64,000 nt of DNA from Candidatus Tectimicrobiota bacterium (GTDB lineage: Bacteria; JACPUC01): positions 62,001 to 126,000 of the forward strand of contig JACPUC010000006.1 in NCBI GenBank assembly GCA_016192455.1, in the 5' to 3' direction. Position numbers and translations under genes: made by a program. The notes beneath the pieces were generated by a model. That model was not told the DNA's origin, made no database searches, and saw nothing but the letters and a program-made list of their open reading frames with translations. This document shows, one piece after another, positions 1,876 to 16,965 of the stretch (positions within the stretch are counted from its first letter, which is position 1; every line of letters starts with the position of its first letter).

Positions 1876-2629
1876 GGCGACGCCGGAGGCGATGCGGGCC
1901 GCGTTCCGCCAGGTCTCCTCTTGCGTGGGTCCGGCGTGACGGCAAGCGTGGAATGTGCGGTCCCGGCCCGTGACGAGGGAAGGTTGCGGAGCCTGCTTGA
2001 TCCTTTGGGAATGGGTCCAGTCACCACTCGACTTTAGCCGAGAAGCCTCGACAGGGCAAGGAGATCCACAAGTATCCCCTTGAATTACAAAGGGAAAAGG
2101 GAGTGCGACGCGGCGCCGAGCCTTCGCTGAAGGGAGACGGAGGGAGACGGAGAGAGCCGCGGGGGCGGAACAACTGGCGCAATCCTGCCCTTCCGAGGAG
2201 GGAGCGACGGGGGGGGCGGTCGGCATCGAAGCGCACGGTTCCCCGCCGCAGGTTTTGACCTGCAAAGGGGCGAGCGCTTTCTTCTCCAATCCGCGCCTCG
2301 CCGTCCGTCCGCCGGGCGACAACCTGGGTGGTGCGCCAGGCGCTGCCGGCTTTCATGGAGCCTTACAACCGCCACTGGCTCATCGATCCCCATGGCTGCC
2401 GCACCCGGACCTGGTGCGCGCAGCAGCTCGCCCTATCTGGAGGGGGAGGCGTGACGTTGCACCGCTTCCTCTGACCCACCAGAAACCGGGGCGGTGCGGG
2501 GGAAGAGCCCCGCCCCTTCACCCCTTGAATTTCCTGCGCTGGTTGCCTACACTCATCGCCTGTTACTCAACCCCGGAATTGGCCGCAATCCAGCCAGAGC
2601 GCCTCTGGCTCGCCCGGCAGGGTAGTTCT

Positions 2630-2944
2630 GTGTCCCTTGTCTCAAGATCCAAGCAGTTCGTCGGTCTAGTCACGGTACTGTTCTGCGTGGACATCCTGCT
2701 GCACTTCGTGGTCTGCCCTCTGCCCGTGCCGTCAAAGGCGTCTCCCTGGCAGGAGACGGTTCTTAGCCAGCCGGCGCCCACTTCCGCCGGCTTCGACCGT
2801 GTTGCCGAGGAGTTCTGTTCCCCAAGCGACTCCAATACCCTTCTCCCTTGGCGCGAGCCGGGCAGCGTCTGCGTCGAGGTCTCCTTCACCCCCATCCTCC
2901 TCTCGGCCGTCTCCCGGACGGAGATTCCACCCCCCGAAGCGTAA
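2630..2944 (+). CDS. Putative small protein with N-terminal hydrophobic segment and C-terminal PPP (leader-peptide-like)
   Basis: GTG start gives MSLVSRSKQFVGLVTVLFCVDILLHFVVC...TEIPPPEA; hydrophobic N-terminus, four Cys, Pro-rich end; upstream of the cytochrome-porin gene. Start uncertain. Confidence 0.4.
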   Translation: MSLVSRSKQFVGLVTVLFCVDILLHFVVCPLPVPSKASPWQETVLSQPAPTSAGFDRVAEEFCSPSDSNTLLPWREPGSVCVEVSFTPILLSAVSRTEIPPPEA

Positions 2945-3233
2945 CCCCTCCACTACCCCCGTGTGATCGAGACGTTACCGCAGCCGCTTCCTGATGGTTC
3001 AGGAAGGTCCGTCGGCAGCAGGATCGTTGCGCCCGGAAGCCGGCTGCCAGCGGCGCGGAGAGCGCCTCGACCACACGAGCCCGAAACCTGATCCGCCGCG
3101 TCCGAGACCGCCCAGCGTCAAGGGGCCGGTCTGCGCAGGGAGGGCGTGACGCCGCTCACGCGACTGCCGGCGGATCACCGAGCTTTGCATCTCAGGGCCC
3201 CCCGAGGGCCAACTTGGTGGGAGTAACGCAGCC

Positions 3234-4742
3234 ATGCCGAAGTATCAGACTCAAGGCAATCCTCTCCGTCGCTGCGGAGCCACACTTGTAATGCTGTTCC
3301 TTGCCGTCGCGGCGGTAGGATGGTTCACCACCCCGGCCATGGCCATCCCGGCTTGGGCCAGGAAACACAATCTGCAATGCAGCACTTGCCATACACGCCC
3401 GCCGCGTCTCAACCGTTTTGGCGAGCAGTTCCACGAGATGAATTTCATGATTCCCAACACCAGCGAGGAGAAGCGGCCGGAGAGGCAGCAGCTCGGCCCC
3501 GTCAGCCTCGAGCAGCAACTGGGCAACCACCTGGCCTTCCGCGTGCTGGGCAACCTGGCGCAGGGGTTCGAGTTCAAGGGCCGTTCAGGCCGCTCGGAGA
3601 TCTCCTTCCCCAATGAGCTGGAGATCTTCATTGCCGCTAACCCGACGGACGACATCGCCGTCTTTGTCGAACTGGAGAACGAGTTGAAGGAGCTGGAGTT
3701 CAACGCCGGAGAGTTCGAGCTGGAGCAGCACTTCGGCCTTGGCCACGAGGCGTTCCTGATGATCAACTTGGCGAAACCCCTGCGCCGCCTCGGCCTGCCG
3801 ACGATGGTGCATGGCGCCGAGGCGGGGGGGATGGTGCACTCCTCCATCCTGGGGCACGGGCCGATGCTGATGATCGGCCTGGTCGATCCCTCGACGAACT
3901 TCTCCTTTCCCACGGCGCGGCAGGTGATGACCAGCCTCCCCGCCGACGTTGAGAACGAGGAGCTGTTGCGCCTGCCCATCACGCCCTACGCCTTCGGCGG
4001 CAAGTTCTTCGGCCTCTACAAAGCCAATGAAAACGATCCGCTCCTCGCCACCACGCCGACCCTCTACAACACGGCCGGCGCGCTCGGCGCCGACTTCCAT
4101 GGACGCCTCTTCGGCAACCTCTTGCTCTACCAGTTCGGCGTCATGAACGGCGCCAACGAACGCAGCAGCGACGCCAACGAGAAAAAGGATTACTACGCCG
4201 GGCTGCGGCTCGATCTCGGCGAGTCCAACTTCGCGCGCTTCAACATCTCCGGGTTTGCTTACTGGGGCAACGACACGGCCAGGGCGCCGCGCGCCTCGGA
4301 CCCCAGCCGCCCCGGCAGGCTGATCGACTGGCGGCGCTACGGCCTCGGCGCCAATCTGACGTGGCGCTGGCTCGACCTCTACGGCGCCTACGTCTGGGAT
4401 AAGATCAATGATGAAGACCTGCCGGTCTTGCTGCGGCCGCACTTCGACAACACGGCCAGCGGCCTGACCCTGGAAGCAGACTTCCTGCTCTCCAACAAGT
4501 GGCTGGCCTCCCTCAGATACGATAGCCTGGACGGCGGAGGGCTGATGGAGTCATCCGGCGCCACCGGCGTGCCCGGCGGCCTGCGCGCCAACGGCGCCAT
4601 GCTCGGCGCCCAGGCCCGCTACTACATGCGGCAGAACGTCTCCCTCTACCTGCGTTACCAGTACAACCTCGAGCAAGACGAGGAGAGCCCGCTCACAAGT
4701 TGGGTCCACGGCGCCATGCTCGGCATCGACCTCGACTTCTAA
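3234..4742 (+). CDS. Cyc2-like mono-haem cytochrome c / outer-membrane beta-barrel fusion
   Basis: Signal peptide ending AMA, then IPAWARKHNLQ-CSTCH-TRP-PRL-NRFG, matching the Cyc2 N-terminal AxPxFAR[Q/K]..CxxCH..PxL pattern; amphipathic beta-strand body; C-terminal Phe (DLDF). Confidence 0.8.
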   Translation: MPKYQTQGNPLRRCGATLVMLFLAVAAVGWFTTPAMAIPAWARKHNLQCSTCHTRPPRLNRFGEQFHEMNFMIPNTSEEKRPERQQLGPVSLEQQLGNHLAFRVLGNLAQGFEFKGRSGRSEISFPNELEIFIAANPTDDIAVFVELENELKELEFNAGEFELEQHFGLGHEAFLMINLAKPLRRLGLPTMVHGAEAGGMVHSSILGHGPMLMIGLVDPSTNFSFPTARQVMTSLPADVENEELLRLPITPYAFGGKFFGLYKANENDPLLATTPTLYNTAGALGADFHGRLFGNLLLYQFGVMNGANERSSDANEKKDYYAGLRLDLGESNFARFNISGFAYWGNDTARAPRASDPSRPGRLIDWRRYGLGANLTWRWLDLYGAYVWDKINDEDLPVLLRPHFDNTASGLTLEADFLLSNKWLASLRYDSLDGGGLMESSGATGVPGGLRANGAMLGAQARYYMRQNVSLYLRYQYNLEQDEESPLTSWVHGAMLGIDLDF

Positions 4743-4762
4743 GACTTCCAAGGAGACTCAAC

Positions 4763-6130
4763 ATGCCCCGGTTTCAGATGCCTTTGAATAGATGGCTCGG
4801 CCTGCTTGCCGCGCTTTTCCTCATCAGCGCGGGCACACCCCCGCTACGCGCCGACACTCCTGCCGAGCGCCGTCCCCACGGCCACGAACAGCCGGCGATG
4901 ATGCAGCAACCCGCGGCGCACGAGGAGAAGGACAAGGCCCCTCATGGGGAGGAGGGGGAGAAGGGCCACAAGGAGGAAGCGGCGCCGCCCGCGGTCAGGG
5001 AGGGTGAGCAGAAGCGCGACGCCCACGGGGAGGACGGGCACGCCAAGGAGTCGCGGGGTCTCGAGCACCTGCATTTTCCCGTGCCGCCGCCGTACCGCAA
5101 GGTGCAGCCGCCCGACAGCCTTTGGACTGATCCCCAGGTGTTGGCGCGCGGCGAGAAGACCTACACCCAGTTCTGCGCCGTCTGTCACGGTGTGAAGGGG
5201 GATGGCCGGACCCCCGCCGCGGCCGCCCTGGCCCTGCCGCCGGCCGACCTCACCCAGAGCCGCGAGATCGCCGAGATGCCGCCCGACTTCTGGTTCTGGA
5301 GAGTCAGCGAAGGCAATACGCCGGGCCCGTACAAGGCGTTCAACTCCGCCATGCCGCCGTGGAAGAGCATCCTCGGCGAAGAGGATCGCTGGGCCGTCAT
5401 CGCCTACATGCATCTCTTCTCGGGACACCGAGGTCCCCACACCCTGCGGCAGCATCCGGGAGCCACCCAGGCGGAGAACCACGGCTCGATGCTATACAAC
5501 ATGGCCTGCACCTGGTGCCATGGCAAGGCGGGCAAGGGGGACGGCCCGGCGGCGTTCTTCGTCGGCGCCTACTCCGCGCCGCGCCCGCGCGACTTCACGC
5601 GCGGCGAGTTCAAGTTCCGTTCTACTCCCAGTGGCGAGCCGCCGACCGACGACGACCTCTACCGCACGATCACGCGGGGCATCCCCGGCTACATGCCGTC
5701 CTTCGCCACGATCAGCGACCTGGAGCGCTGGATGCTCACCCTGTACATCAAGCGCTTCATGCCGGCTCCGGGGCCGGAGGCCGTGCAGCCGATCAAAGTC
5801 CTTGCGCCTCTCGCCATGACGGAGGAGAGCGTCAAGAAGGGCTTGCTCCTCTACCAGCAGGCGGAGTGCTGGACCTGCCACGGCTTCCTCGGGGAGGGAG
5901 ACGGACCGAGCGCCGCAACGCTGAAGGATGCCGACGGCCTGCCGATCACCGCCGCCAAGTTGAGCCGCCCCTCAACCTTTAAGAACGGCAGGTTGCCGGA
6001 GGATATCTACCGCACGCTGATGACGGGGCTGTCGGGCACGCCGATGCCAAGCTACGCCGATGCCTTCGAAGGCCAGCAGGAGGATGTCTGGCACCTCGTC
6101 AACTACGTGCGGTGGCTCTCCACGGAGTAA
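4763..6130 (+). CDS. Exported tri-haem cytochrome c with His/Glu-rich N-terminal linker
   Basis: RBS AGGAG; signal peptide; CAVCH, CTWCH, CWTCH, each followed by GxGDG and a distal MP motif. Confidence 0.9.
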   Translation: MPRFQMPLNRWLGLLAALFLISAGTPPLRADTPAERRPHGHEQPAMMQQPAAHEEKDKAPHGEEGEKGHKEEAAPPAVREGEQKRDAHGEDGHAKESRGLEHLHFPVPPPYRKVQPPDSLWTDPQVLARGEKTYTQFCAVCHGVKGDGRTPAAAALALPPADLTQSREIAEMPPDFWFWRVSEGNTPGPYKAFNSAMPPWKSILGEEDRWAVIAYMHLFSGHRGPHTLRQHPGATQAENHGSMLYNMACTWCHGKAGKGDGPAAFFVGAYSAPRPRDFTRGEFKFRSTPSGEPPTDDDLYRTITRGIPGYMPSFATISDLERWMLTLYIKRFMPAPGPEAVQPIKVLAPLAMTEESVKKGLLLYQQAECWTCHGFLGEGDGPSAATLKDADGLPITAAKLSRPSTFKNGRLPEDIYRTLMTGLSGTPMPSYADAFEGQQEDVWHLVNYVRWLSTE

Positions 6131-6390
6131 CGAAGTATGGGAGGGGGCGGGACCGCTTTCCGCACGGCGTGCAGCACCGTCGTGAGGCGCACCGCGCGGG
6201 GCGGCGGTCCTGCCGCCGTGGCGAGGGTGGGGCTGGAGGCACAGGATGACGCCGCGGGGTCGTGCCGCGTCTGCCGGCGGGCGGTACCGCCTGTGGTCGC
6301 TCCCCTTTCGCAGGCCGGCGGCACGCGCCAGAGGAGAAGAGTGGTTTGCAACGTCCCTGTCAAGGTCAAGGGCGAGGGAGCGACATCACG

Positions 6391-6560
6391 CTATGCCAGT
6401 CGCCTGCGGAAGACGCCAAGGCCGAGCGCGAAGACGCCGAGGCCGAGGGCCGCCATGGTCACGGTCTGCCGCCAGAGCACCTCGAGGCCGACGCCCTTTA
6501 GGAAGACGCCGAGGCCGATTTCCAGGTAGTAGCGCAGCGGGCTCAGAAGGGAGACAGCCT
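6391..6560 (-). pseudogene. C-terminal remnant of an ABC-2 exporter permease (YbhR-like)
   Basis: AVSLLSPLRYYLEIGLGVFLKGVGLEVLW...FRRRLA is a typical ABC-2 permease C-terminus; upstream sequence is unrelated. Confidence 0.75.
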
Positions 6561-6849
6561 GGTTTCTTCTGCGGCGGTTGGAGGAAGTGGCAGCCAAAGG
6601 ATGCACCCCATCTCTCCATTTCACCTTCTCCCTCCAGGCTCAGCAGAAGATCTCCCTCAGAAAACAGGGCGCCGTGGGAGTTCGGGTTGCCAATTCGGCA
6701 CCAAGAAATTCTTGTAAGTTATTGTAATTAAAAGAGACATGTGAGTTTTTCGGCGTGGGAGTTCGGGTCGAAATCGGTTTGGCTTGAGTTCTGCGGATCA
6801 CCCGCCTCGCTACCTACCGCTGGGGCATCCTGAACTTCTACGATGTCAG

Positions 6850-6990
6850 CGTCTCACCGGGCCGTTGGAAGCCGTCAACAACAAGATCAAGCTCCTCCAG
6901 CGCATGGCCTTCGACTTCCGCGATCACGAGTTCTTCAAGCTCCGCATCATGGGCTTCCATGAAGCGAAGTACACTTTAACCGGATGAGCC
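6850..6990 (+). mobile_element. ISL3-family transposase 3' remnant with probable right end
   Basis: GPLEAVNNKIKLLQRMAFDFRDHEFFKLRI resembles the ISL3 transposase C-terminus; it ends ...CCGGATGAGCC (GGCTC on the minus strand, ISL3-type terminus). Confidence 0.75.
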
Positions 6991-7448
6991 CTTAAAAGCG
7001 TCCCATCGACAGAATTGCCTCACGCCTGCCCGTCTAGCCGTCGCCGGCGCCAACCGCACCGCGGCAAGTAGGAGCTACTTGTCGTCCGTGACTCCGAAGA
7101 GGAAGGCTCGCACTTCATCGCGGGCTTCGGCAGCGTCGGTAGCCGTGCGGCCCTCACGTAGGGGCCACCGGTGCTTGGGCAGCTGGCAACGGGTAGCAGC
7201 AAGCTCTCCCGTCGCAAAAGCAGAGAGACAGACGTAACGGGAGCACCTGGGGAAGTTCAAGATTCGGCAGGTCATGAAGTTTCAGTCAGGAAAAGTCTCC
7301 TCGAGGAAAGCAGCAGCAGGAGAGTTGCGGGGAGGGGGGAAGGTGTTGACGGGGGATGACAGGGACCAGGAGAGTAGCTGTACTCCCCACAACCTGATCC
7401 GCAAAAGACCAAACATGAGTCAACGATAGACGTGACCCCTTTATGTTC

Positions 7449-7472
7449 AGGCGGCGTAAGCCCCGCCTCTAC
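7449..7472 (-). repeat. GTAG-family REP-like palindrome
   Basis: Minus strand GTAGAGGCGGGGCTTACGCCGCCT: GTAG head plus imperfect GC hairpin. Confidence 0.6.
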
Positions 7473-7560
7473 GAGGCGAATCGCCTGGTGCGCTCCCGCA
7501 TGCCCGCGATGTGGCGGGAGTCGCTGGGAGACGCCCGGCGCCCCGATTTCGATTGACGCT

Positions 7561-7577
7561 TAGCAAAAAACATGCCG
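7561..7577 (-). promoter_or_regulatory. Possible sigma54 -24/-12 site pointing leftward
   Basis: Minus strand CGGCATGTTTTTTGCTA has GG-N10-GC spacing; no intact gene downstream. Confidence 0.35.
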
Positions 7578-7640
7578 TGCCGCAGGAATGGAAACGATTA
7601 CGTACGGCCATTCCCTCCCCTCAGCCAGCAGATTTAGGGC

Positions 7641-7668
7641 TTGACATGATTGGGGCAGGTATTATAGT
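7641..7668 (+). promoter_or_regulatory. Sigma70-type promoter for the 7929 gene
   Basis: TTGACA-16 nt-TATAGT in an AT-richer patch. Confidence 0.65.
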
Positions 7669-7928
7669 ATTGACGATAGTTACAGCACATTCTGTGTTTT
7701 CAGCCGCTTTCAGCTCACGGTCTGCAGCGATGTGGCGCGCAGGCAGCCTCAAGTGCCCCGTGCGGCGCCCACGATGAAACCCATGGTAGGGCGTCACGCA
7801 TCATCGAGACCGGGGTCAGTTCATCTCCCGCCGGTATTCGGGCGGGGGATTCGTCTCGAAGTCTCAAGTGTGCGGAGCTAGTGGTGCCAATCGGCTTCCC
7901 TATTAGCTTTGCGAAGGAGATAAGTGTT

Positions 7929-8945
7929 ATGAGAACAATTCGGCAACCCCTAGTGGCTCTCGCGATACTGTGTGCGCTCGTGATTGCTGCTCCGGCAGAG
8001 GCTATTGTGATCGACTCCTTCGATGCGGGGCCTCAAACTATAGGCCCAATAAACGCCTTTTCCTCACCAAACCCGAGAACTAATCTCTATGTAGGCCCCG
8101 GCCCCATTGGCAACCGACGTGAGTTTAGGGCAGGGGAGGGTCACCCTACCAATGGGACGACGTTCACCATTACGGGGACTCCACCAGGCGAAAACAGCAT
8201 TGCATGGACTGGGCCCTTTGGGGCAACAGCGCAGTGGCTCAGATACGGCACGCGTATTGTAACCGCTGCTCCCCAACAATTGAACGTGGATTTCTCTGGG
8301 GAGACGGCAATTGAACTGGATTTTCTCAATCTCGCGGGTGGTGTTCCTAATCCAGGTCCCAGTGATACCACTTGGTTTGTTCAAGTATGGCTCACTACGA
8401 AGGCTGGAACGGTTGACGAAGACACTTGGTCAGCGTTTGACGCACGTGTTCCATTCATCGGGGGGCCAATCACGGTCTCACTACCGTTAGCTGACTTCCG
8501 GAATGGTTCAAGCATCGCACCGACAGCAGCGGACCTTGCTGACGTTGACGGAATCGAGGTCTTTCAGGGGAATAATGGCAATTTTCAAGCCGGGGCTCCG
8601 GATAGGCACGTAGTTCTGGGCGAAGTGAGGACCGCCGGTAACCCCGATGAGGATAATGACGGGGTCGTTGACACAGAGGACCTCTGTCCGGGTACGATGA
8701 TCCCAGAAGCAACGGTTCCCTCGAGGAGACTTGGCACGAACCGCTGGGCGTTGGTTGATGCGGACGGCGTGTTCGATACCACGCAGCCCAAGGGTAGGGG
8801 CCCGCAAAAGAGTTTCACCATCGAAGAGACTGCCGGCTGCTCGTGCGAGCAGATAATTGCGATCGGCGAGCTCGGTGAAGGTCATACGAAATTCGGCTGC
8901 AGCATCAGCGTGATGGAAGAATTTGTGGACGCCGTCGCGCCGTAG
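7929..8945 (+). CDS. Secreted hypothetical protein, beta-rich N-domain plus Asp/Cys-rich C-domain
   Basis: RBS AAGGAGA; signal peptide ending AEA; DEDNDGVVDTEDLCP (thrombospondin-3-like Ca-binding pattern); GCSCEQI...GHTKFGCS; many A/T-ending codons unlike neighbours. Confidence 0.8.
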   Translation: MRTIRQPLVALAILCALVIAAPAEAIVIDSFDAGPQTIGPINAFSSPNPRTNLYVGPGPIGNRREFRAGEGHPTNGTTFTITGTPPGENSIAWTGPFGATAQWLRYGTRIVTAAPQQLNVDFSGETAIELDFLNLAGGVPNPGPSDTTWFVQVWLTTKAGTVDEDTWSAFDARVPFIGGPITVSLPLADFRNGSSIAPTAADLADVDGIEVFQGNNGNFQAGAPDRHVVLGEVRTAGNPDEDNDGVVDTEDLCPGTMIPEATVPSRRLGTNRWALVDADGVFDTTQPKGRGPQKSFTIEETAGCSCEQIIAIGELGEGHTKFGCSISVMEEFVDAVAP

Positions 8946-8975
8946 CTGAAGAAGCTACGCTCCAAATCAATTCGC

Positions 8976-9010
8976 AAGGAGGCGGCGGTCGCCCCCGTTG
9001 CCTCCTTTCT
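8976..9010 (+). terminator. Probable intrinsic terminator
   Basis: AAGGAGGCGGCGG-loop-CCGTTGCCTCCTT hairpin followed by a short T-rich tail, 30 nt after the stop. Confidence 0.6.
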
Positions 9011-9099
9011 GCCTGGAAAAAAGAATCTCTAAGTAGTTGATTTCACGACCTTGCAGGTTTGCCGCCGTGCGTGTCGCAGCGGGCGGGATGTTCAGAGCC

Positions 9100-9137
9100 G
9101 TAGGGGCGGGCGAGGATCAATGATCCTGCCCCGCCCT
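9100..9137 (+). repeat. GTAG-family REP-like palindrome
   Basis: GTAGGGGCGGGCGAGGATCAATGATCCTGCCCCGCCCT hairpin. Confidence 0.6.
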
Positions 9138-9221
9138 CCGAGTCGCCCCCGCTAAGTCGCCAGCCTCATCTCAGCCATCCAGAGCCGCTCAAGTGAGGTA
9201 TGTGCCGTACCTTCGGCACCA

Positions 9222-9656
9222 CTAATGATGTCCCGGCATTGTTATCATGGGTGCGATCCTGGTGCGCGACTCCTCCCGCGCCAGGGTGACGGCGCTACGC
9301 GCCGCCTCGGCCTCCCGTTTGGCCTCCGGCACGCGGGCGTGCGCCGCCGCGAGCTCCTGCCTGGCGGCGTGGACGAGGTGCTCGGCCCGGCGCAACTCGG
9401 CCTGCGCCACCTGCGAGTCGAGCTGGGCGATGAGCGCTCCCTCCTCGACCCGCGCCCCTTCCGCGACCAACAGGCTGGCGACGGCGCCGGCTACCTTGGC
9501 GGCGACGGCGGCCTGCTCCCCTTCGATGCGGCCGCTCGTCTCCAGGGTGCCGTCCAGGGCCGCCTTTGGGGGCCACAGAGAGTACCCCGCCGCGACGAGC
9601 GCCAGAGACGGAAGGATGAAGATCAGGAGTTTTCTTCGCAGCTTCATCGTCGCCAT
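9222..9656 (-). pseudogene. Truncated HlyD-family membrane-fusion protein (YbhG-like N-terminal part)
   Basis: TM anchor, LETSGRIEGE, lipoyl half-motif VAAKVAGAVASLLVAEGARVEEG, coiled coil; breaks off after RTRIA into unrelated sequence. Confidence 0.8.
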
Positions 9657-9716
9657 CGTCGAGTTGTGAATCCGAGGCGCGCCCGCACCATCGGTCGGAC
9701 GTGCGCCGGCCAGGCA

Positions 9717-10091
9717 TCAGCGGGCGATGAGCTTGCCGCGCAGCATCCCCATCTGGCAACTGAAGGGATACTCGCCCGGCTTGTCGATCTTGAACTCGAG
9801 GGTGACGTCCTCTCCTGGCGGCAGCGCGGCGCTCTTTTGGAAGTCGGGGAAGACGATCATCTCGGAGCAGGCGGCGGTCTCCTGGCGGGTGAACGTCAGG
9901 CGCACCGGACGGCCGGCTTGCACCATGATGAGGTCGGGGGTATAGCCGCCCTTCACGGTAACGCGCGCCTCCTGCACGCCGGAGGAAGCGACCGAGGCTT
10001 CCACGCCGCGCTTCTTTCCAAAGAAGAACCAGAGGATGAACCCCGAAACCGCCAACCCGGCGGCCGTGACGATCCAGGCCGCGGCATCCAT
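9717..10091 (-). CDS. Membrane-anchored cupredoxin-domain copper chaperone (CupA-like)
   Basis: N-terminal TM, VKGGYTP, CSE, FSCQMGMLRG; immediately downstream of copA. Confidence 0.9.
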   Translation of the reverse strand: MDAAAWIVTAAGLAVSGFILWFFFGKKRGVEASVASSGVQEARVTVKGGYTPDLIMVQAGRPVRLTFTRQETAACSEMIVFPDFQKSAALPPGEDVTLEFKIDKPGEYPFSCQMGMLRGKLIAR

Positions 10092-10093
10092 GC

Positions 10094-12727
10094 TTACACC
10101 TCCCGCATCGTGAACCGCCGCAGGCGATTGGCGTTGCTCACCACGGTGACGGAGCTGAACGCCATGGCCGCGCCGGCGATGATAGGAGAGAGGAGGAGAC
10201 CGAAGAAGGGGTAGAGCACCCCGGCCGCGATGGGGATGCCAAGGGCGTTGTAGATGAAGGCCCCGAACAGGTTCTGCTTGATGTTGCGCATCGTCGCCCG
10301 GGAGATGGCGATGGCGTGCACGACGCCGCGCAGGCTGCCCTTGATGAGGGTGATGTCCGCCGCTTCGATGGCCACGTCGGTGCCAGTGCCGATGGCCAAG
10401 CCTACGTCCGCCTGCGCCAGCGCCGGCGCATCGTTGATGCCGTCCCCCACCATCGCCACGACCTTCCCCTCGGCCTGCAGGAGGTGAACGTTCTGCGCCT
10501 TGTCCTCGGGCAGCACCTCGGCGAGCACGCGGTCGATCCGCACCTGCCGCCCGATGGCCGCCGCCGTGCGGGCGTTGTCGCCGGTGAGCATGATGACCTC
10601 GAGCCCCAGCCGCTTGAGGGCTTGGATCGCCGCCACGGAGTCCGCCTTCACGGTATCGGCGACGGCGATGATGCCCGCGGCGCGCCCGTCGATGGCGACG
10701 AACATGGGCGTCTTGCCGTCGTCGGCGAGTGCGGCGCTGGCCTCGGCGAGCGGTCCCGGCTCGATGCCGCGTTGGCGCAGGAGCTTTAGGTTGCCGAGAA
10801 GGACGTGGCGGCCCTGCACGCGCGCCTCGACGCCGTGCCCGGGGATGGCCTGGAACCCCTCCGCCGCCTCCAGGCTCAGGCCGCGCCCCTCGGCGCCCCG
10901 CACGATGGCCTCGCCGAGCGGGTGCTCGGAGCCGCGCTCGACCGAGGCGGCGAGGCGCAGCACCTCGTCGTCGGTGAATCCCTCGCTCACCCGCACATCG
11001 GTGAGCGACGGCTCGCCGACGGTGATGGTGCCGGTCTTGTCGAGGACCACGGCCCCGATGCGCTGGGCGGTCTCCAACGCCTCGCCGTTGCGGATCAGGA
11101 TGCCGTGTTCCGCGCCCTTGCCGATGCCGACCATGAGGGACATGGGGGTGGCGAGACCCAGGGCGCACGGGCAGGCGATGATGAGCACCGTGACCGCGGT
11201 GATGAGGGCGTAAACGACGCGGGGGGAGGGACCGAAGTCGAACCAGACAACGAACGTCAGGACGCCGATCACCATCACCACCGGCACGAAGTAGCCGGAG
11301 ATGACGTCCACGAGCCGGGCGATGGGGGCCTTCGAGCTTTGCGCTTCCTGGACCATCTTGACGATCTGCGCCAGCATGGTCTCCTTGCCCACCTTCGTCG
11401 CCTTGAACCGGAAGCTGCCGGTCTTGTTCAGGGTGGCGCCGATCACCTCGTCGCCAGCGTGCTTCTCGACCGGGATCGACTCGCCGGTGATCATCGACTC
11501 GTCGACGGTCGAGCTCCCCTCGATGACCTCGCCGTCGACCGGGACCTTCTGGCCGGGCCGCACGATAACCACGTCGCCGCGCAGCACCTCCTCGACCGGG
11601 ATGTCCTGTTCCCGCCCGTCCCGGAGCACCCGCGCGGTCTTGGCCTGCAGGCCGATGAGCTTCTGGATGGCCTCGCTGGTGCGGCCCTTGGCGCGCAGCT
11701 CGAGGGCCTGGCCGAGCACCACGAGGGCGATGACCACCGCCACCACGTCGTAGAACGGCTCCACGTTGCCTTCGGGGAAGATCGACGGCGCCAGCACCAC
11801 GACCGTCGAGTAGAGCCAGGCGGCCGAGGTGCCCAGGGCGATGAGGGTGTTCATGTTCGCGGAGCGGTGCCGCAGGGCGGCGACGGCGCCGGTGAAGAAA
11901 TGCTGGCCGGACCAGAAGAGCACCGGCAGCGTCAACAGCCCCAGGCCGCCCCAGATGAGGCGGATGCTGCTGAAGCTGAGGTCGCGGAGGCCTGGGAAGT
12001 AGGAGGGGTACCCGAGGATAATGACGGGGAGGCTGATCACGGCCGCGAACCAGAACTTCGCCAGCAGGCCGTGGTACTCTCGTTCGCGCGCCTCTTGCTC
12101 GCTCGGCGTCCCCGGCTCTTCCCCCTTCTTCGGACGATAGCCGTTGGCGGCGATCGCCGCCTCGATGGCTGCAACCGAGGTTTCGGCCGGCAGGTAGCTG
12201 ACGCGCGCCGTCTCCGTCGCCAGGTCAACCGTCGCTGCCAGCACGCCGCGCACCCGGCCCAGCGCCCCCTCCACCTTGGTCACGCAGGAGGCGCAGTGCA
12301 TCCCCGCAATGCCGACTGTGAGCTTCAGCACGCCTGTCTGGAACCCCTTGGCTTCGATGGCCTCGATGATGCGCGGGACCTCGATGCGGCTGGGGTCGTA
12401 GCGCACCGTCCCTTCGCCGGCGGCGTGGTTCACGTGCGCCGCCATCACCCCCGGCAGCGCCGCCACCGCCACGCGAATCGTCTCGGCGCAGTGGTGGCAG
12501 GTCATGCCGGAGATCGGCAGACGCAGTTCCTCGGCGGCATCGACCGCTGCAGGCTCCGCGGCCTGATGTTCGCCGCGAAGCGCCGCGGGGAGGTACTGCT
12601 GTGGAGCGGCGTCGAACCTCGCGGCGCAGGCGTCGCTGCAGAAGCAGAACGTGGCGCCGTCATACGACCGCGAGGCCGCCGCGGCCTCCTCATCTATCTC
12701 CATGCCGCACACGGGGTCTGTTGCCAT
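10094..12727 (-). CDS. copA: Cu(I)-translocating P1B-1 ATPase with YHS and two HMA domains
   Basis: DPVCGM/FCSDAC (YHS), GMTCHHC, GMHCASC, TGES, CPCALGL, DKTGT, SEHPL, GDGIND, YN and MAFSS; start at MATDPVCG. Confidence 0.97.
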
Positions 12728-12831
12728 GATTCCCATCCCTTGCTCTGCGATGGTAAGCGCGGCGCTGCCGCGATGGTGTGGTCTGCCTCGCCGCGCTCCG
12801 CTGCTGACCCCAAAGCGCTGGGGACCGGCGT

Positions 12832-13269
12832 TCACGCCTTGCGGGTGACCATCACCTGATCCCCGCGCAGGGCCACCTGGAGCTCCTCGAGGGGACGCGG
12901 CGGCGGGCCGCCCACGTTGCGTCCGAAGAGGTCGTAGTGGCCGTTGTGGCAGGCGCACCAGATGTGCGCAAGGTCCTCGCGGTACTGCACGGTGCAGGCG
13001 AGGTGCGTGCACACCGCGTTGAAGGCCCGCACCTCACCGCCGGGCGTCTTGATGACGATACCGGGAATGCTGCCAAAACGGAAGATCTTGCCGCTGTTCG
13101 GCTGGAGCTCGCCCGTTTTCGCGGCGACCACGGTGGGTTGCCCCGCCGACGCCAACTTTGGCGGCAGGAGGAAGCGGAACGCCGCCTGAAAGATGGTTCC
13201 CGCCCAAAGGAGGAACCCACCTCCCAGGAACAGATTGCTGAAAGTTCGCCGACTGAGGAGCCGTTTCAT
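12832..13269 (-). CDS. Rieske [2Fe-2S] protein (QcrA/PetC-like), Tat-type N-terminus
   Basis: RBS GGAGG; SRRTF plus TM; CTHLAC and [13 protein letters not shown]. Confidence 0.9.
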
Positions 13270-14488
13270 CGTCGTATCCTCCCAGCCACGCATGGCTACC
13301 GGACCCATTGCCAGGAAAGCTCAACCGCCGCGCCGGCCGCGTCCGCCGCGGTCGCATCCACTGGAGGAGGGCGCGGCCGGCCTGGCGTCGGAACTCGAGC
13401 CAGACCGCCCGGTACCGTTCATCGCCCCGCAGCACCGCCAGGGCGGACGCCCGTACCGCCTCGTTTTCGGTCAGCACTCGATACGCCAGCTTCGGGAACG
13501 AGTAGAAGAACGTTGCGACCCTCCGCGCCCAGGCGAGCTCGGGGCAGAGCTCGCGCCGCAGGGCAGCTTCGTAGCGCACAAGCGCGGCAGCGTCCTCGGT
13601 GGCGCCGAGGAGGCTGTCGGCTGCAAGCTGGCCGCTGCGCACGGCGTAGTAGATGCCCTCGCCGATGAATGGATCGACAAGCTCCGCCGCATCCCCGGTG
13701 AACAGGCAGCGCCGCGTGCCGAACTGGGCGCCCCTCCGCGGATGCAGTGGGATCGCCCAGCCTCCCCGGTTCCTGAGCAAGGAGGCGGCGGCGAGGCGCT
13801 CGCGCGAGACGTACGAGGTGTAGTAGGCTTTCAGACTGCCGATCCGCCCTTTCAGTCCCCCCACGCCGACCGACACATGGTCGGCCTTCGGGAAGACCCA
13901 GGCGCAGCCGAAGGGGATCGTGCCGAACTCGATCCGCACCTCGTCCCCCAGGGCACCGAGGCGCGGCTTGCCCACCGCCACCTCGCTCTCCAGAGCCAGG
14001 GCCACTTGGCGCTCCCGCCGCCGCCCGAGCTGCCGCGCCACCGTGCTGGCGGCGCCATCCGCCGCAATGAGGAAGCGCCCCTCGTAGTCGTGCCCGCGGG
14101 TGGTGACGACGATGGCATCCGCTGCTTCCCTCACGCGCAGGACGCGCTCCCCGGTGCGCGCCTCTCCGCCTCGCCGCAGGGCCGCCTCGAGGAGGTAGGC
14201 GTCGAAGCGTTCGCGCATTGTCATGTACCCAAGGGGACGCGCCGCGCGGAAGTGGAAAGAACGCTCTCCCCGGTAGCTGAGGGTCATGCCCCGCACCGTC
14301 CGCTCCACCACGGAGTGGAAACCGGGAGCCAGCACCTTGTCGAGTTTCAGGGAGAGGCAGCCGGCGCACACCTTGGGGCGCGGGAAATCAGCCTGATCAA
14401 GGCCGAGGACGCGCCATCCGGCCGCAGCCAAACTTTCCATGGCCGTTGATCCCGCTGGTCCGAGACCGACAATAATCGCGTCGTACAT
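13034..14488 (-). CDS. Geranylgeranyl-reductase-family FAD oxidoreductase
   Basis: YDAIIVGLGPAG, FPRPKVC, IAADGA, WVFPK, GDAA..VDPFIGEGI; the 3' extension overlaps the Rieske gene. Confidence 0.88.
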   Translation of the reverse strand: MYDAIIVGLGPAGSTAMESLAAAGWRVLGLDQADFPRPKVCAGCLSLKLDKVLAPGFHSVVERTVRGMTLSYRGERSFHFRAARPLGYMTMRERFDAYLLEAALRRGGEARTGERVLRVREAADAIVVTTRGHDYEGRFLIAADGAASTVARQLGRRRERQVALALESEVAVGKPRLGALGDEVRIEFGTIPFGCAWVFPKADHVSVGVGGLKGRIGSLKAYYTSYVSRERLAAASLLRNRGGWAIPLHPRRGAQFGTRRCLFTGDAAELVDPFIGEGIYYAVRSGQLAADSLLGATEDAAALVRYEAALRRELCPELAWARRVATFFYSFPKLAYRVLTENEAVRASALAVLRGDERYRAVWLEFRRQAGRALLQWMRPRRTRPARRLSFPGNGSGSHAWLGGYDDETAPQSANFQQSVPGRWVPPLGGNHLSGGVPLPPAAKVGVGGATHRGRRENGRAPAEQRQDLPFWQHSRYRHQDARR

Positions 14489-14539
14489 GGCTCGCTCCCG
14501 ACCCAGCGCGACGGCCGCCTGCCGCGCCGGGCGGCATCG

Positions 14540-15283
14540 CTACGGCTCGGCCTCCGTGGGTTGCCGAACCGGTGGAAGCAGGCCCGCCGGCGCCTGGCGT
14601 TCGCCTCGTCTCCTCGCCAGACGCGGCAACAGGAGGTAGCGCCAATCTCTCCCCCGCGGTATGAACATCGGCACTTGCTGCCGGTAGAGTGCGTAGTCCA
14701 GACCCCACTGCGCGGACAGGACCTGCTCCTCGCGCCGCGCCAAGCGGCAGTAGGCCCAGACGATCAGCGGCGCGAGGAGAACCGTCGGGATCGTGGGCCA
14801 GTGGATGACTTGGCCGAGGATCGCCAGGAAGATGCCGACATACTGCGGGTGTCGGACGATGCCGTAGAGTCCGGTCGTGGCGAGACGCTGTTCCTTGCGC
14901 GCCCGGTACACCTCCCGCCAGCCTTCGATGAGCAGCGAGAGGCCGGAGAAGACGAGGAGGTAGCCGACCATCATCTCGATGGAGATCATCAGGGGTCCCC
15001 AGCCGAAGAGGCTGGCCCACAGATGGCCGTTCTCGTGCAGCCAGGGGATGCGCAGGCCGAGCCACCCCGTCAGGAAGTAGATGGTCAAGGGGAAGCCGTA
15101 CATCTCGGCATAGAGCGCGATGATGAACGCCTGCACCAGGCCGGCGCGGCTCCACTCCCGCCAGCTCTTCGGCGCCACGAAGCGGTAGAGCACCCACGAG
15201 GCGATGACCACCATCACCAGCGTCAGCTCCCACACGCCTCCCAGCGGCAGACTTGCCTCAAACCCGATCGGTGCCTCTTCCAT
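14540..15283 (-). CDS. Isoprenylcysteine carboxylmethyltransferase (ICMT/PEMT)-family membrane protein
   Basis: EMYGFPLTIY, TTGLYGIVRHPQY, REE...Y..Y...VPMFIP; family common in copper clusters. Confidence 0.9.
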   Translation of the reverse strand: MEEAPIGFEASLPLGGVWELTLVMVVIASWVLYRFVAPKSWREWSRAGLVQAFIIALYAEMYGFPLTIYFLTGWLGLRIPWLHENGHLWASLFGWGPLMISIEMMVGYLLVFSGLSLLIEGWREVYRARKEQRLATTGLYGIVRHPQYVGIFLAILGQVIHWPTIPTVLLAPLIVWAYCRLARREEQVLSAQWGLDYALYRQQVPMFIPRGRDWRYLLLPRLARRRGERQAPAGLLPPVRQPTEAEP

Positions 15284-15542
15284 TGCTGTTCGGTACCATG
15301 AGGAAAAGGGTCAGTCCCGGTTGTGGTTTCCTCGCGCCGCCAACCAGGGCAGCCGGCACGCGGCCGGAGGTCCTGCTCGCCGCCCGCGGCTCGCGGCCAC
15401 CGCAGCGGCCTCTCCTGAATGCTCAAGGACTCTCCACGACTATCCCTCTCACGGCCCGGGAAAGCTGCCGCGTCATGCATCGAAGTCCTTCAACTTGCGC
15501 GGCGGAGCTGACAGCCCAGCCTCGGCAGCGTTCTTAGCGATC

Positions 15543-15854
15543 TCAGGGCCGCAGCCCTGGCTGCCGGAGGAGCACCAGGATCTCCTCGACCTTGTCGCGC
15601 TGCGCCTCGCTGCCGCCGCTGCGCAGGGCCTCCGCCACGCAGGTGAGGAGGTGGCGGCGCAGCAGCAGCTCCTCCACCTTGCCGATGGCGGCTGCCGCGG
15701 AGCGAAGCTGCGCCAGAACTTCCATGCAGTAGCGCTCCGTGGCAACCATTTGCTGGATGCCCCGGAGTTGCCCCTCGATGCGCTTCAGGCGCATGATGAC
15801 ATCGCTTTGCGCTCCGCGATCCGCAATCACCCCCGTGGCCGGCGCCGGTGTCAT
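15543..15854 (-). CDS. csoR: CsoR/RcnR-family metal-sensing repressor
   Basis: RLKRIEGQLRGI, RYC..VL.Q, HLLTC (Cys-His-Cys Cu(I) fingerprint). Confidence 0.92.
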   Translation of the reverse strand: MTPAPATGVIADRGAQSDVIMRLKRIEGQLRGIQQMVATERYCMEVLAQLRSAAAAIGKVEELLLRRHLLTCVAEALRSGGSEAQRDKVEEILVLLRQPGLRP

Positions 15855-15903
15855 GGTTCCCTCCGCGAATCGACGATGGGCCGCGGCTTCTTGCTGAAAC
15901 CCC

Positions 15904-16965
15904 TCACAACGCTCCCTGGCCGAACGAGATGCTGTGCGGCCCCGGCCAGAGGGGGAGGCTGGTGGTGACGGCCTCGCGCTCGGGATCGATGATGACGAGC
16001 CGGTTCGAGCCGGTATTCACCGTGAGGTACATCAGCCCATCCGGACCAACGGCGAGGTGCTCCGGTTGCTGGCCGACCTCGAGGCGCCGGCGCACCTCCA
16101 GCGTGGTGGCGTCGATGACGGTCAGGAACGTCGAACCGCGCACGCCGACGTACACCTTCCCGCCATCCCGCGTCACCGCAACGGCATGCGGCGCCTTCCC
16201 CACCGTGATCTTTGCCAGGCGCCTCTTCGCCACCACATCGAGCACGGTAAGGGTGTCATCCTGCTCATCCGTGACGTACAGCCGCGTGCCGTCCGGGCTC
16301 ACCGCCACGTGGCCCATCATCGAGCGACCGACCGGCAGGACGGCCACCTCCTTCGCCGTAACGGGATCAACCACGGAGAGGGTCGTCCCCATGTTGAGGA
16401 CGTAGAGCGCCCGCCCATCCGGAGCAAACTCCAGGTGAAAGGGTGGCTCGGTGAGGCGAATCGTGCGCACGATGCGCTGCGTCGCGGTATCCAGGACGAG
16501 CAACTGCTTGGCCGCCACGTAGAGGAGCTTCCCATCAGGGCTGACCGCCATGTGATGGGAGATGTCTCCGACATCGAGGGTGCGGACGACGCGGCGGGCG
16601 GCGAGATCAACGATGGAGATGACCTTGCCGCCCATGTTCGCCGTGTAGAGGAAGCGCCCATCCGGGGTGACCGCCCCGCCGTGGGGGGCGCCCTCCACCG
16701 GAATCGTGGCGCGCACGGCGCCTTGCGCCAGATCGATGACCGCCACATTCCGCGCGTCGCCCATCGGGATGAAGGCGAGCGTCGAGCCTTGATTGGAGCG
16801 CGGCGTTTCTGCGGCCAGGCGCCCCTGGCTGCCGTTCTCCTCGCCGCCCGCCTCGGCGGCGGCAGGGAGGCTGAAGAGAAGCAGCCCGGCAAGGAGCAGA
16901 ACGGGGGACAGCGAGACGGTGGTGCGTAGCGGAAGTTTCGTGATCACGAAGGCACTCCTTCTCAT
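15904..16965 (-). CDS. Exported YVTN/YncE-type beta-propeller protein
   Basis: Signal peptide; repeated H..A.[ST]PDG..LY blades, with His at the start of most blades. Confidence 0.85.
   Translation of the reverse strand: MRRSAFVITKLPLRTTVSLSPVLLLAGLLLFSLPAAAEAGGEENGSQGRLAAETPRSNQGSTLAFIPMGDARNVAVIDLAQGAVRATIPVEGAPHGGAVTPDGRFLYTANMGGKVISIVDLAARRVVRTLDVGDISHHMAVSPDGKLLYVAAKQLLVLDTATQRIVRTIRLTEPPFHLEFAPDGRALYVLNMGTTLSVVDPVTAKEVAVLPVGRSMMGHVAVSPDGTRLYVTDEQDDTLTVLDVVAKRRLAKITVGKAPHAVAVTRDGGKVYVGVRGSTFLTVIDATTLEVRRRLEVGQQPEHLAVGPDGLMYLTVNTGSNRLVIIDPEREAVTTSLPLWPGPHSISFGQGAL

Follow-up and report, generated by a model that had tools for sequence, protein, structure and literature searches.

Does a Cyc2-type cytochrome-porin encoded near a copper-resistance operon oxidize iron, or does it serve in the handling of copper? 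The question is raised by two genes at positions 3234 to 6130 of a stretch of 64,000 nucleotides (nt) from the Candidatus Tectimicrobiota bacterium contig JACPUC010000006.1 (positions 62,001 to 126,000 of the forward strand), referred to here as the window. The upstream gene encodes a fused monohaem cytochrome-porin, the window porin, and the downstream gene a tri-haem cytochrome c, its partner. The gene cyc2 is a widely used marker of microbial iron oxidation in genomes and metagenomes. In our analysis the window porin fell into one of two clades of a conserved gene pair, and this clade is marked by metal-related neighbours and by segments rich in Met and His. The two genes may encode a one-electron conduit from the outer membrane to the periplasm, and by analogy with PcoA/PcoB or CueO the module of this clade may belong to the copper-stress set; this is the reading we tentatively favour. 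For the window pair itself, a copper role is plausible but unproven.

The assignment to Cyc2 was made by the published definition. In the passages of Keffer et al. (PMC8406198) that set it out, Cyc2 has a signal peptide and one CXXCH, which is preceded by AXPXFAR[Q/K][T/Y] and followed four residues on by PXL; it is at least 365 residues long and is predicted to form a 16-strand porin. The window porin has a signal peptide (read by eye), a single CXXCH (residues 49–53, nt 3378–3392), 502 residues and a porin barrel. PXL is present as H53-T-R-P-P57-R-L59, and residues 37–59 read AIPAWARKHNLQCSTCHTRPPRL. In the upstream motif 7/9 positions fit, W replacing F and H replacing T/Y. The family alignment places the start of the haem motif right behind the A-x-A site, and the last residue of the window porin is Phe. 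An AlphaFold2 (AF2) model based on 26 homologues reached a predicted local distance difference test score (pLDDT) of 78 and a predicted template modelling score (pTM) of 0.81; past residue 99 the predicted protein is nearly all beta, with 16 to 18 strands by DSSP elements. A Foldseek search of the PDB returned the 16-strand porins OmpF/OmpC/OmpK36/Omp32 as top matches (E about 5e-12, probability 1.00). Residues 193–206, within an insertion discussed below, were poorly modelled (pLDDT <50). A Pfam scan of the porin open reading frame (ORF) gave no family, and a PDB sequence search with the family profile gave 0 matches. The gene is present in one copy in the genome of the window.

A word-indexed search found 52 relatives of the window porin, all unnamed or annotated as "hypothetical". 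The haem-region consensus of 26 aligned family members is AIPAFARKYDLxCxxCHTxPPRLN; the family shows every feature of the published definition, and AIPAFARKY fits the motif exactly. Against 1.84 billion representatives the family profile matched 3786 proteins at E≤0.001 and 54 at E≤1e-30, the remote matches being proteins of 400–450 residues that bear the same motif. The family aligned end to end with 40 remote members in hhalign (probability 100, E 8e-61, 395 columns). The profile search returned only names such as "hypothetical" or "cytochrome c" (Omnitrophota, Chlamydiota and others) and reached no validated Cyc2, and a cluster look-up of 10 remote relatives gave no informative names. By its sequence features the window porin is to be classed as a divergent member of the Cyc2 family, the validated Cyc2s being compared through the published definition and not by alignment. 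The original prediction, made from the letters alone, had seen AIPAWARKH-x3-CSTCH-x3-PRL, a barrel-like body and a terminal Phe and had proposed a fused cytochrome-porin of Cyc2 type. All of these elements are present in ORF 3234–4742, the model yields a barrel with 16-strand porins as best PDB matches, and motif, length and barrel agree with the proposed type.

The same prediction had taken the W-for-F change as a sign of a Cyc2-like clade used for copper. Loci of relatives were read at this position. They came from a scan of one genome per species, which gave 495 relatives among 577 pattern matches, and the best 80 loci were used; all are from metagenome-assembled genomes of Nitrospirota, Rokubacteria/Methylomirabilota, Binatia, Chromatiales and Troglogloeales. 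F occupied the position in 74/74 readable relatives and W in none, and H was found at the last motif position in 8/74. Among aligned metagenome proteins, W is common only to the window porin and P0003, its closest full-length relative (52% identity; P0004 stands at 76%). With 0/74 genome relatives carrying it, W-for-F was rejected as a clade marker; the change is confined to one small branch. Because of W41 and H45, a strict published Cyc2 screen would reject the window porin. Motif-filtered surveys will miss such members, the window porin and P0003 both failing PXFAR[Q/K][T/Y].

The stop codon of the porin gene (TAA, 4740–4742) is followed by the ATG of the partner at 4763, and the exported three-CxxCH cytochrome with a His-rich linker that had been expected 20 nt downstream was confirmed. 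Pfam detected PF13442 (Cytochrome_CBB3, 114 bits) and PF00034 (Cytochrom_C, 97 bits) in it, three stretches each and above cut-off, and an MP(P/S) motif follows each of the three haem sites. With CxxCH, distal Met and cytochrome c fold domains, the partner has the sequence characters of a class I c-type cytochrome. PDB 6H5L is, in the part of the source that names it, a Kuenenia stuttgartiensis HAO-like structure (bioRxiv 10.64898/2026.07.28.741245). Residues 239–451 of the partner, its two C-terminal haem domains, match chain 6h5l_B (E 8e-43). We take this chain to be the dihaem partner Kustc0457. NCBIfam gave a weak similarity of the partner to cytochrome 579 (E 4.5e-16, below cut-off).

The pairing of the two genes was followed across the 80 loci. 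Nine loci end less than 300 nt past the porin gene, and the other 71 were scored. A homologue of the partner cytochrome was found within about 130 nt of the porin stop in 66 of these 71 loci with room (65 when counted by the best high-scoring segment pair (HSP), the best HSP in L076 being a second copy 6 kb off). No cytochrome homologue was present in loci L041 and L072; in L047 it lies 1.6 kb downstream, and in L062 and L063 a partial one lies upstream. Because of this conservation the gene pair is more than chance, and the two-gene unit with a periplasmic multihaem cytochrome, as originally proposed, was borne out. Among complete partner ORFs, 48 encode two haems and 16, that of the window included, three; the three-haem form belongs to the Rokubacteria-type branch.

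A quick maximum-likelihood tree was calculated from 69 full-length family members and 4 outgroup rows, 12 truncated loci being left out. It splits the family into clade I with 20 rows and clade II with 49 (Shimodaira-Hasegawa-like approximate likelihood ratio test 97). Clade I consists of Nitrospirales with a few Gammaproteobacteria. Clade II comprises the window porin, 17 Rokubacteria-type rows, 27 from Nitrospirota/Troglogloeales/Chromatiales and 4 of Binatia type. The terminal branch of the window porin is long (1.0 vs a median of 0.16) and its best identity is 44%; its place inside clade II is unsure because of this branch length.

Copper genes were then surveyed around the pair with the window CopA as tblastn query; the 80 loci searched total 1.05 Mb, of which about 0.86 Mb is flank, and matches are counted at ≥37% identity over ≥530 aa. 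A matching P1B ATPase was found in 12/80 loci, where 0.6 are expected at 0.7 per Mb. A thirteenth match, in L023, was dropped as a P2-type ATPase by Pfam. For the background, two CopA-like genes occur in the genome of the window (4.46 Mb) together with one distant P1B, and five linked genomes have 2–4 matches in 2.2–6.2 Mb. Of the relatives' ATPases scanned, 9/9 scored above the NCBIfam copper-translocating cut-off (555–611 bits vs 397). The copper-type P1B ATPases lie in the flanks of 11/48 clade II loci (about 0.4 expected) and 1/20 clade I loci. Other metal genes (CusA/CzcA-type resistance-nodulation-division (RND) pumps, MerR, CsoR, zf-CopZ, Metal_resist) were found in 10 more clade II loci and in none of the remaining clade I loci. 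Thus 21/48 clade II loci have a metal gene compared with 1/20 in clade I (Fisher p 0.0015), and among loci of at least 12 kb the counts are 18/31 and 1/14 (p 0.0025). A remote cytochrome-porin clade on metagenome contigs was used as control; it consists of 37 mostly short loci (0.23 Mb), too small a sample alone, and has 0 CopA and one CusA-like gene, so that clade II compares with 1/37 here (p 9e-6). The CopA label needs at least 5 changes on the tree. At the level of the clade, copper-gene linkage was thus seen, and here the copper link drawn by the original prediction is supported, CopA in 11 and Cus, MerR or CsoR in 10 more loci; the reason it had given does not.

The order of the genes varies from lineage to lineage. 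L020 has copA-orf-cyc2-cyt, all co-directional, the gaps being 34, 66 and 13 nt. L064 has cyc2-cyt-copA, L011 cyc2-cyt-GT2-copA and L006 cyc2-cyt-ICMT-AhpC-flavoprotein-copA. The order orf-cyc2-cyt-merR-cytc-copA is found in L010 and L060, and L027 has the same with two further genes between cyt and merR. In L012, copA and merR are divergent from orf-cyc2-cyt, and L051 has cyc2-cyt-P1B with merR upstream on the opposite strand. L014 reads cusA-ytkA-cusC-cusB-cyc2-cyt and L021 cyc2-cyt-orf-csoR. The MerR-side intergenic regions of L012, L010 and L051, read by eye, contained no convincing dyad. As separate observations, the L020 frame at 4320–9488 amounts to 1722 aa with its CopA part from near residue 960, which may be a fusion or an ORF-calling artefact in high-GC DNA, and genes for an OprB-type porin, ZnuA and NikR lie downstream of copA in L010 (9870–14604, followed by ATP-binding cassette transporter genes) and L060 (15914–18759). 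The gene strings of L010 and L060 and these downstream genes form a larger multi-metal island in these Nitrospirota.

The second and third traits of clade II lie in the proteins themselves. Clade II barrels have an insertion before HGPM..G..DPST that neither clade I nor the wider family has. Strand parity in the model hints that it faces the periplasm. In the 60 residues before DPST, Met plus His number a median of 9 in clade II (range 2–20, n=42), 2 in clade I (0–5, n=17) and 10 in the window porin; ten rows without an exact DPST match were left out of this count. The stretch of the partner between signal peptide and first haem is longer in clade II, and its Met plus His count has a median of 6 (1–23, n=44) compared with 0 in clade I (0–5, n=17; Mann-Whitney p 3e-8). 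Eight Nitrospirota partners start this stretch with MDHS followed by many Met. The classical copper-resistance repeat reads DHSxMxGM. Chromatiales partners are His-rich, Rokubacteria-type partners share GGHAHVPAPLEYADAHVP, and no other partner of the three-haem set is as rich in His and acidic residues as that of the window. The N-terminus of the L004 partner (111 residues) matched 6 records in a tblastn search of 72,556 plasmids (best E 7e-6): three of copper resistance protein B, two of copper-resistance multicopper oxidase (CopA) and one hypothetical protein, the last in Moraxella, the genus also of one CopB record. As described in part of PMC3847284, Met/His/Asp-rich motifs of Pseudomonas syringae CopA bind up to 11 copper ions, CopB is Met-rich, and CueO gains an additional copper site from a Met-rich helix. 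Metal neighbours, barrel insertion and partner tails together mark clade II, and clade I lacks them except for one CopA locus.

Judged by its predicted parts, the conserved two-gene unit is built like a route that leads single electrons from a metal ion at or in the pore into the periplasm. In the copper-stress function that we favour, the N-terminal monohaem domain of the Cyc2-family porin would sit at or in the barrel. CopA or Cus would pump Cu(I) into the periplasm, where the segments rich in Met and His would bind it and haem c would oxidize it to the less toxic Cu(II). The soluble tri-haem cytochrome would take the electron on to the respiratory chain and its haem-copper oxidases, the pore could be the exit route for the ion, and Fe(II) would perhaps be oxidized too. 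A bolder version, in which clade II porins and Met/His-tailed cytochromes would constitute a haem-based cuprous oxidase and exit system, an analogue of CueO/PcoAB without direct use of O2, appears doubtful to us. It would give the "iron oxidase" family a copper branch across Nitrospirota, Methylomirabilota/Rokubacteria, Binatia and Chromatiales, a consequence we likewise consider rather unlikely.

Several observations weigh against a copper function. In the window, the cop operon is convergent with the cytochrome genes and 3.6 kb off, beyond an insertion sequence (IS) remnant, and the region upstream of 3234 shares only unremarkable 10-mers with the cop promoters, so that no shared operator was found. 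The original prediction, which had the pair facing a copper operon, overstated this adjacency, and the copper case is weaker in the window than in several relatives. The linker of the window partner is His/acid-rich and not of the Met-rich type, and it matched none of the 72,556 plasmids. A small ORF that precedes the cyc2-like gene in relatives is absent from the window and its whole genome. In the comparison of clades, CopA alone gives a Fisher p of 0.09 for 11/48 vs 1/20, the metal-gene counts are not fully independent because the loci are related, and 27/48 clade II loci have no metal gene, though many of their flanks are short. Both RND and MerR are widespread families, the RNDs counted in L031 and L032 being only presumptively of heavy-metal type, and the metal sensed by the relatives' MerRs is ambiguous because all scored below NCBIfam cut-offs. 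The multicopper-oxidase domain PF07732 was not found in the genome of the window (88% complete) and is present in 4/5 other CopA-linked genomes. The module therefore does not simply replace CueO, and replacement of a missing multicopper oxidase was set aside as a general rule. Finally, Fe(II) oxidation is the sole demonstrated activity of any Cyc2 by the account in PMC8406198, and Yu et al. (PMC9040806) propose a role in Mn(II) lithotrophy for the Cyc2 that they report from Nitrospirales and from most "Ca. Troglogloeales".

These last points favour an ordinary Cyc2 module, in which oxidation of dissolved Fe(II), or of Mn(II), at the outer membrane would yield energy or detoxify iron, with the cytochrome in the role of Cyc1/Cyt579 and the copper genes as a metal-stress island or present by chance. 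We regard this main rival as quite possible. Motif and fold are those of the family, the partner has its below-cut-off similarity to cytochrome 579, the genome encodes two haem-copper oxidases, and the two gene sets of the window are not one operon. In Rokubacteria and "Ca. Nitrospira defluvii", FeGenie identified homologues of cyc2 or sulfocyanin (in the portion of PMC7005843 on these taxa), and, in the genome and expression passages of PMC9040806, Cyc2 is in the shared gene set of Mn(II)-oxidizing Manganitrophaceae and highly expressed in strain Mn1. Four Troglogloeales loci (L011, L022, L025, L057) fall within clade II, the match to that paper being at order level, and the original wording of copper handling "rather than iron oxidation" is not supported. 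The ordinary module leaves unexplained why clade II combines three independent traits that clade I lacks, and why copA stands in a tight co-directional string in L020 and L064. Uptake or delivery of copper or another metal, in which the porin would admit Cu and the cytochrome would reduce it, or act as its chaperone, so that cuproenzymes (haem-copper oxidases, cupredoxin) can be assembled, is improbable: copper is bound by His/Met-rich segments of importers and exporters alike, the genome encodes a cupredoxin and the haem-copper oxidases, and the uptake-type genes ZnuA/NikR/OprB follow in L010 and L060, but the linked genes are of export and repressor types (CopA P1B-1 ATPases, CusA/CzcA-type RND pumps, CsoR/MerR). 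It is still less probable that the window pair is a drifting remnant that evolves fast, bears a damaged motif and was split from former partners by IS-mediated rearrangement. Its long branch and low best identity, W41 and H45, the IS remnant and truncated HlyD-like ORF before the cop operon and the missing upstream ORF would fit such a fate. Against it, both ORFs are intact and keep their ribosome-binding sites, the substitutions are conservative (aromatic for aromatic), and the same branch holds the metagenome relatives P0003, which also has W, and P0004; 47/47 invariant columns are kept, but with the window being one of the 26 rows this shows only that no column is broken.

The pair was also compared with known systems. 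With the Cyc2 oxidases (Acidithiobacillus ferrooxidans Cyc2, Mariprofundus Cyc2PV-1, Leptospirillum Cyt572) the window pair shares the signal peptide, the single N-terminal CxxCH, AxPx(F)AR(K)(Y) and PxL, a porin barrel of about 400 residues ending in Phe and a following gene for a periplasmic c-type cytochrome. It differs from them in the W and H of the motif (F and Y/T there), in neighbours that are copper/heavy-metal export genes and not cytochrome oxidase or rusticyanin genes, and in a di-/tri-haem partner with a metal-binding-type tail that resembles what is presumably Kustc0457. The four Troglogloeales loci, matched to the Cyc2 of "Ca. Troglogloeales"/"Ca. Manganitrophaceae" at order level, are in the same clade II as the window porin, which has its own long branch at 36–44% identity. 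Residues 239–451 of the partner align over the whole of 6H5L chain B, a dihaem cytochrome that is likewise a dedicated electron-transfer subunit; the window partner has in addition an N-terminal haem domain and the His-rich linker, and is paired with a porin instead of an octahaem enzyme. The resemblance to PcoA/PcoB (CopA/CopB) and CueO is one of functional analogy, a barrel plus a periplasmic redox protein with Met/His-rich segments beside Cu(I) export genes. Here c-type haems take the place of copper, and the respiratory chain, not O2 itself, would be the direct acceptor of the electrons. Pfam found no multicopper-oxidase or CopB domain in the pair, and the likeness to PcoAB is functional and compositional only. 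In MtrCAB/MtoAB/PioAB electrons also cross the outer membrane through a barrel and c-type haems, but these systems have a separate decahaem cytochrome in a 26-strand barrel, as outlined in PMC8406198, compared with one haem fused to a 16-strand-like porin here.

Cyc2 homologues in these phyla are already in print (PMC7005843, PMC9040806). Our literature search, with subscription journals outside its range, found no paper that ties Cyc2-type proteins to copper resistance or Cu(I) oxidation. The main text of PMC9040806 has 0 occurrences of copper, the relevant passages of PMC5566968 handle PcoAB separately from Cyc2, a paper on copper/nickel tailings has Cyc2 as an iron marker only, and a 2026 review of iron-oxidation proteins contains neither "cuprous" nor "copper resistance". 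If clade II does serve in the response to copper, or to metal stress in general, the label "iron oxidiser" would have to be reconsidered for many Nitrospirota and Rokubacteria of groundwater and soil. A function of this kind would also represent a haem-based handling of periplasmic Cu(I) that could work where O2-dependent multicopper oxidases cannot.

Features of the window, and small ORFs directly upstream of the cyc2-like gene in relatives (locus numbering)
Feature	Position	Strand	Basis or remark
Cyc2-type fused monohaem cytochrome-porin gene, 502 aa	3234..4742	+	Family alignment, AF2 model, porin fold, hhalign
Signal peptide, residues 1–36, AMA before I37/38	3234..3341	+	Sec-type, hydrophobic core, read by eye
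Cyc2 consensus region AIPAWARKH-NLQ-CSTCH-TRP-PRL	3342..3410	+	Departs from published pattern at W41, H45
Beta-barrel porin body, residues about 99–502, C-terminal Phe	3528..4739	+	DSSP of model, Foldseek
Met/His-rich insertion, residues 186–215, ahead of invariant HGPM..G..DPST block	3789..3878	+
Spacer, 20 nt, with AAGGAG ribosome-binding site	4743..4762	+
Exported tri-haem class I cytochrome c (predicted), 455 aa	4763..6130	+	Pfam, PDB match, conserved pairing
His- and acid-rich linker, residues 31–125 (9 His, 2 Met, 20 Asp/Glu)	4853..5137	+
Haem motif 1, CAVCH, residue 138	5174..5188	+	SAMPPW after it, candidate Met-Pro axial ligand
Haem motif 2, CTWCH, residue 249	5507..5521	+	Then GYMPSF
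Haem motif 3, CWTCH, residue 369	5867..5881	+	Then TPMPSY
ISL3-family transposase C-terminal remnant	6784..6987	+	Pfam DDE_Tnp_ISL3, E 2e-6, profile positions 210–240 of 240
Secreted 354-aa protein without family	7881..8945		Low-GC patch (GC 0.56–0.62)
HlyD-type N-terminal fragment, 144 aa, truncated	9222..9656	-
Membrane-anchored cupredoxin-like protein, last gene of copper operon	9717..10100	-	Pfam Cupredoxin_1, E 5e-21
CopA Cu(I)-exporting P1B ATPase, YHS and two HMA	10094..12736 (start uncertain, ORF open to 13012)	-	Pfam; TIGR01511, 635 bits vs 397
Rieske [2Fe-2S] protein	12832..13308	-	Pfam Rieske
Geranylgeranyl-reductase-family flavoprotein	13034..14488	-	NCBIfam TIGR02032, 206 bits vs cut-off 159
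ICMT/PEMT-family membrane methyltransferase	14540..15283	-	Pfam
CsoR-family copper-sensing repressor	15543..15854	-	Pfam Trns_repr_metal, E 2e-22; weak NCBIfam RicR match
Small upstream ORF, L010	3192-3590	+
Small upstream ORF, L060	9564-9920	+
Small upstream ORF, L027	9550-9909	+
Small upstream ORF, L012	9414-9788	+
Small upstream ORF, L009	9488-9835	+
Small upstream ORF, L017	9602-9940	+
Small upstream ORF, L020	9522-9890	+
Small upstream ORF, L021	9552-9911	+
Small upstream ORF, L029	5434-5796	+
Small upstream ORF, L059	9512-9844	+
Small upstream ORF, L023	9515-9976	+
Small upstream ORF, L051	ending about 9808	+

At least 12 relatives have the small ORF (110–150 aa) immediately before their cyc2-like gene. 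Its product begins with a membrane or signal segment, contains His and Cys in its middle part, and ends in a conserved sequence of the kind ..LFLLH..LI or ..LYQLH..LI. No Pfam family (E up to 1) or NCBIfam family was credible for these ORFs.

A scan of 2600–7000 for promoters and terminators gave 0 promoter-like sites and 1 terminator-like site, and shuffled sequences gave more. Scans for tRNA and Rfam families (1–20 kb and 1–18 kb of the window, respectively) found none. The sequencing runs listed comprise 12 of DNA and none of RNA. One perfect 8-bp palindrome was found in the operator search, at 2987. The stretch between the two gene sets, 6130–9717, looks rearranged. Of the neighbours that had been named for the window, CopA, CsoR, cupredoxin and Rieske are all present by Pfam. 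The make-up of the copper operon (9717–16965, minus strand) is unusual, with a YVTN beta-propeller, CsoR, ICMT/PEMT, the flavoprotein, Rieske, CopA and the cupredoxin. A second CopA, 53% identical and with its own CsoR, is encoded on genome contig C5 (112823–117950) with no cyc2-like gene nearby. In L002 and L006 the cytochrome gene is followed by an ICMT/PEMT homologue, and L029 has one close to it. Genes for ICMT, DUF5676, SHOCT, DUF2933 and Metal_resist recur near the cyc2-like pair in L006, L017, L021 and L029.

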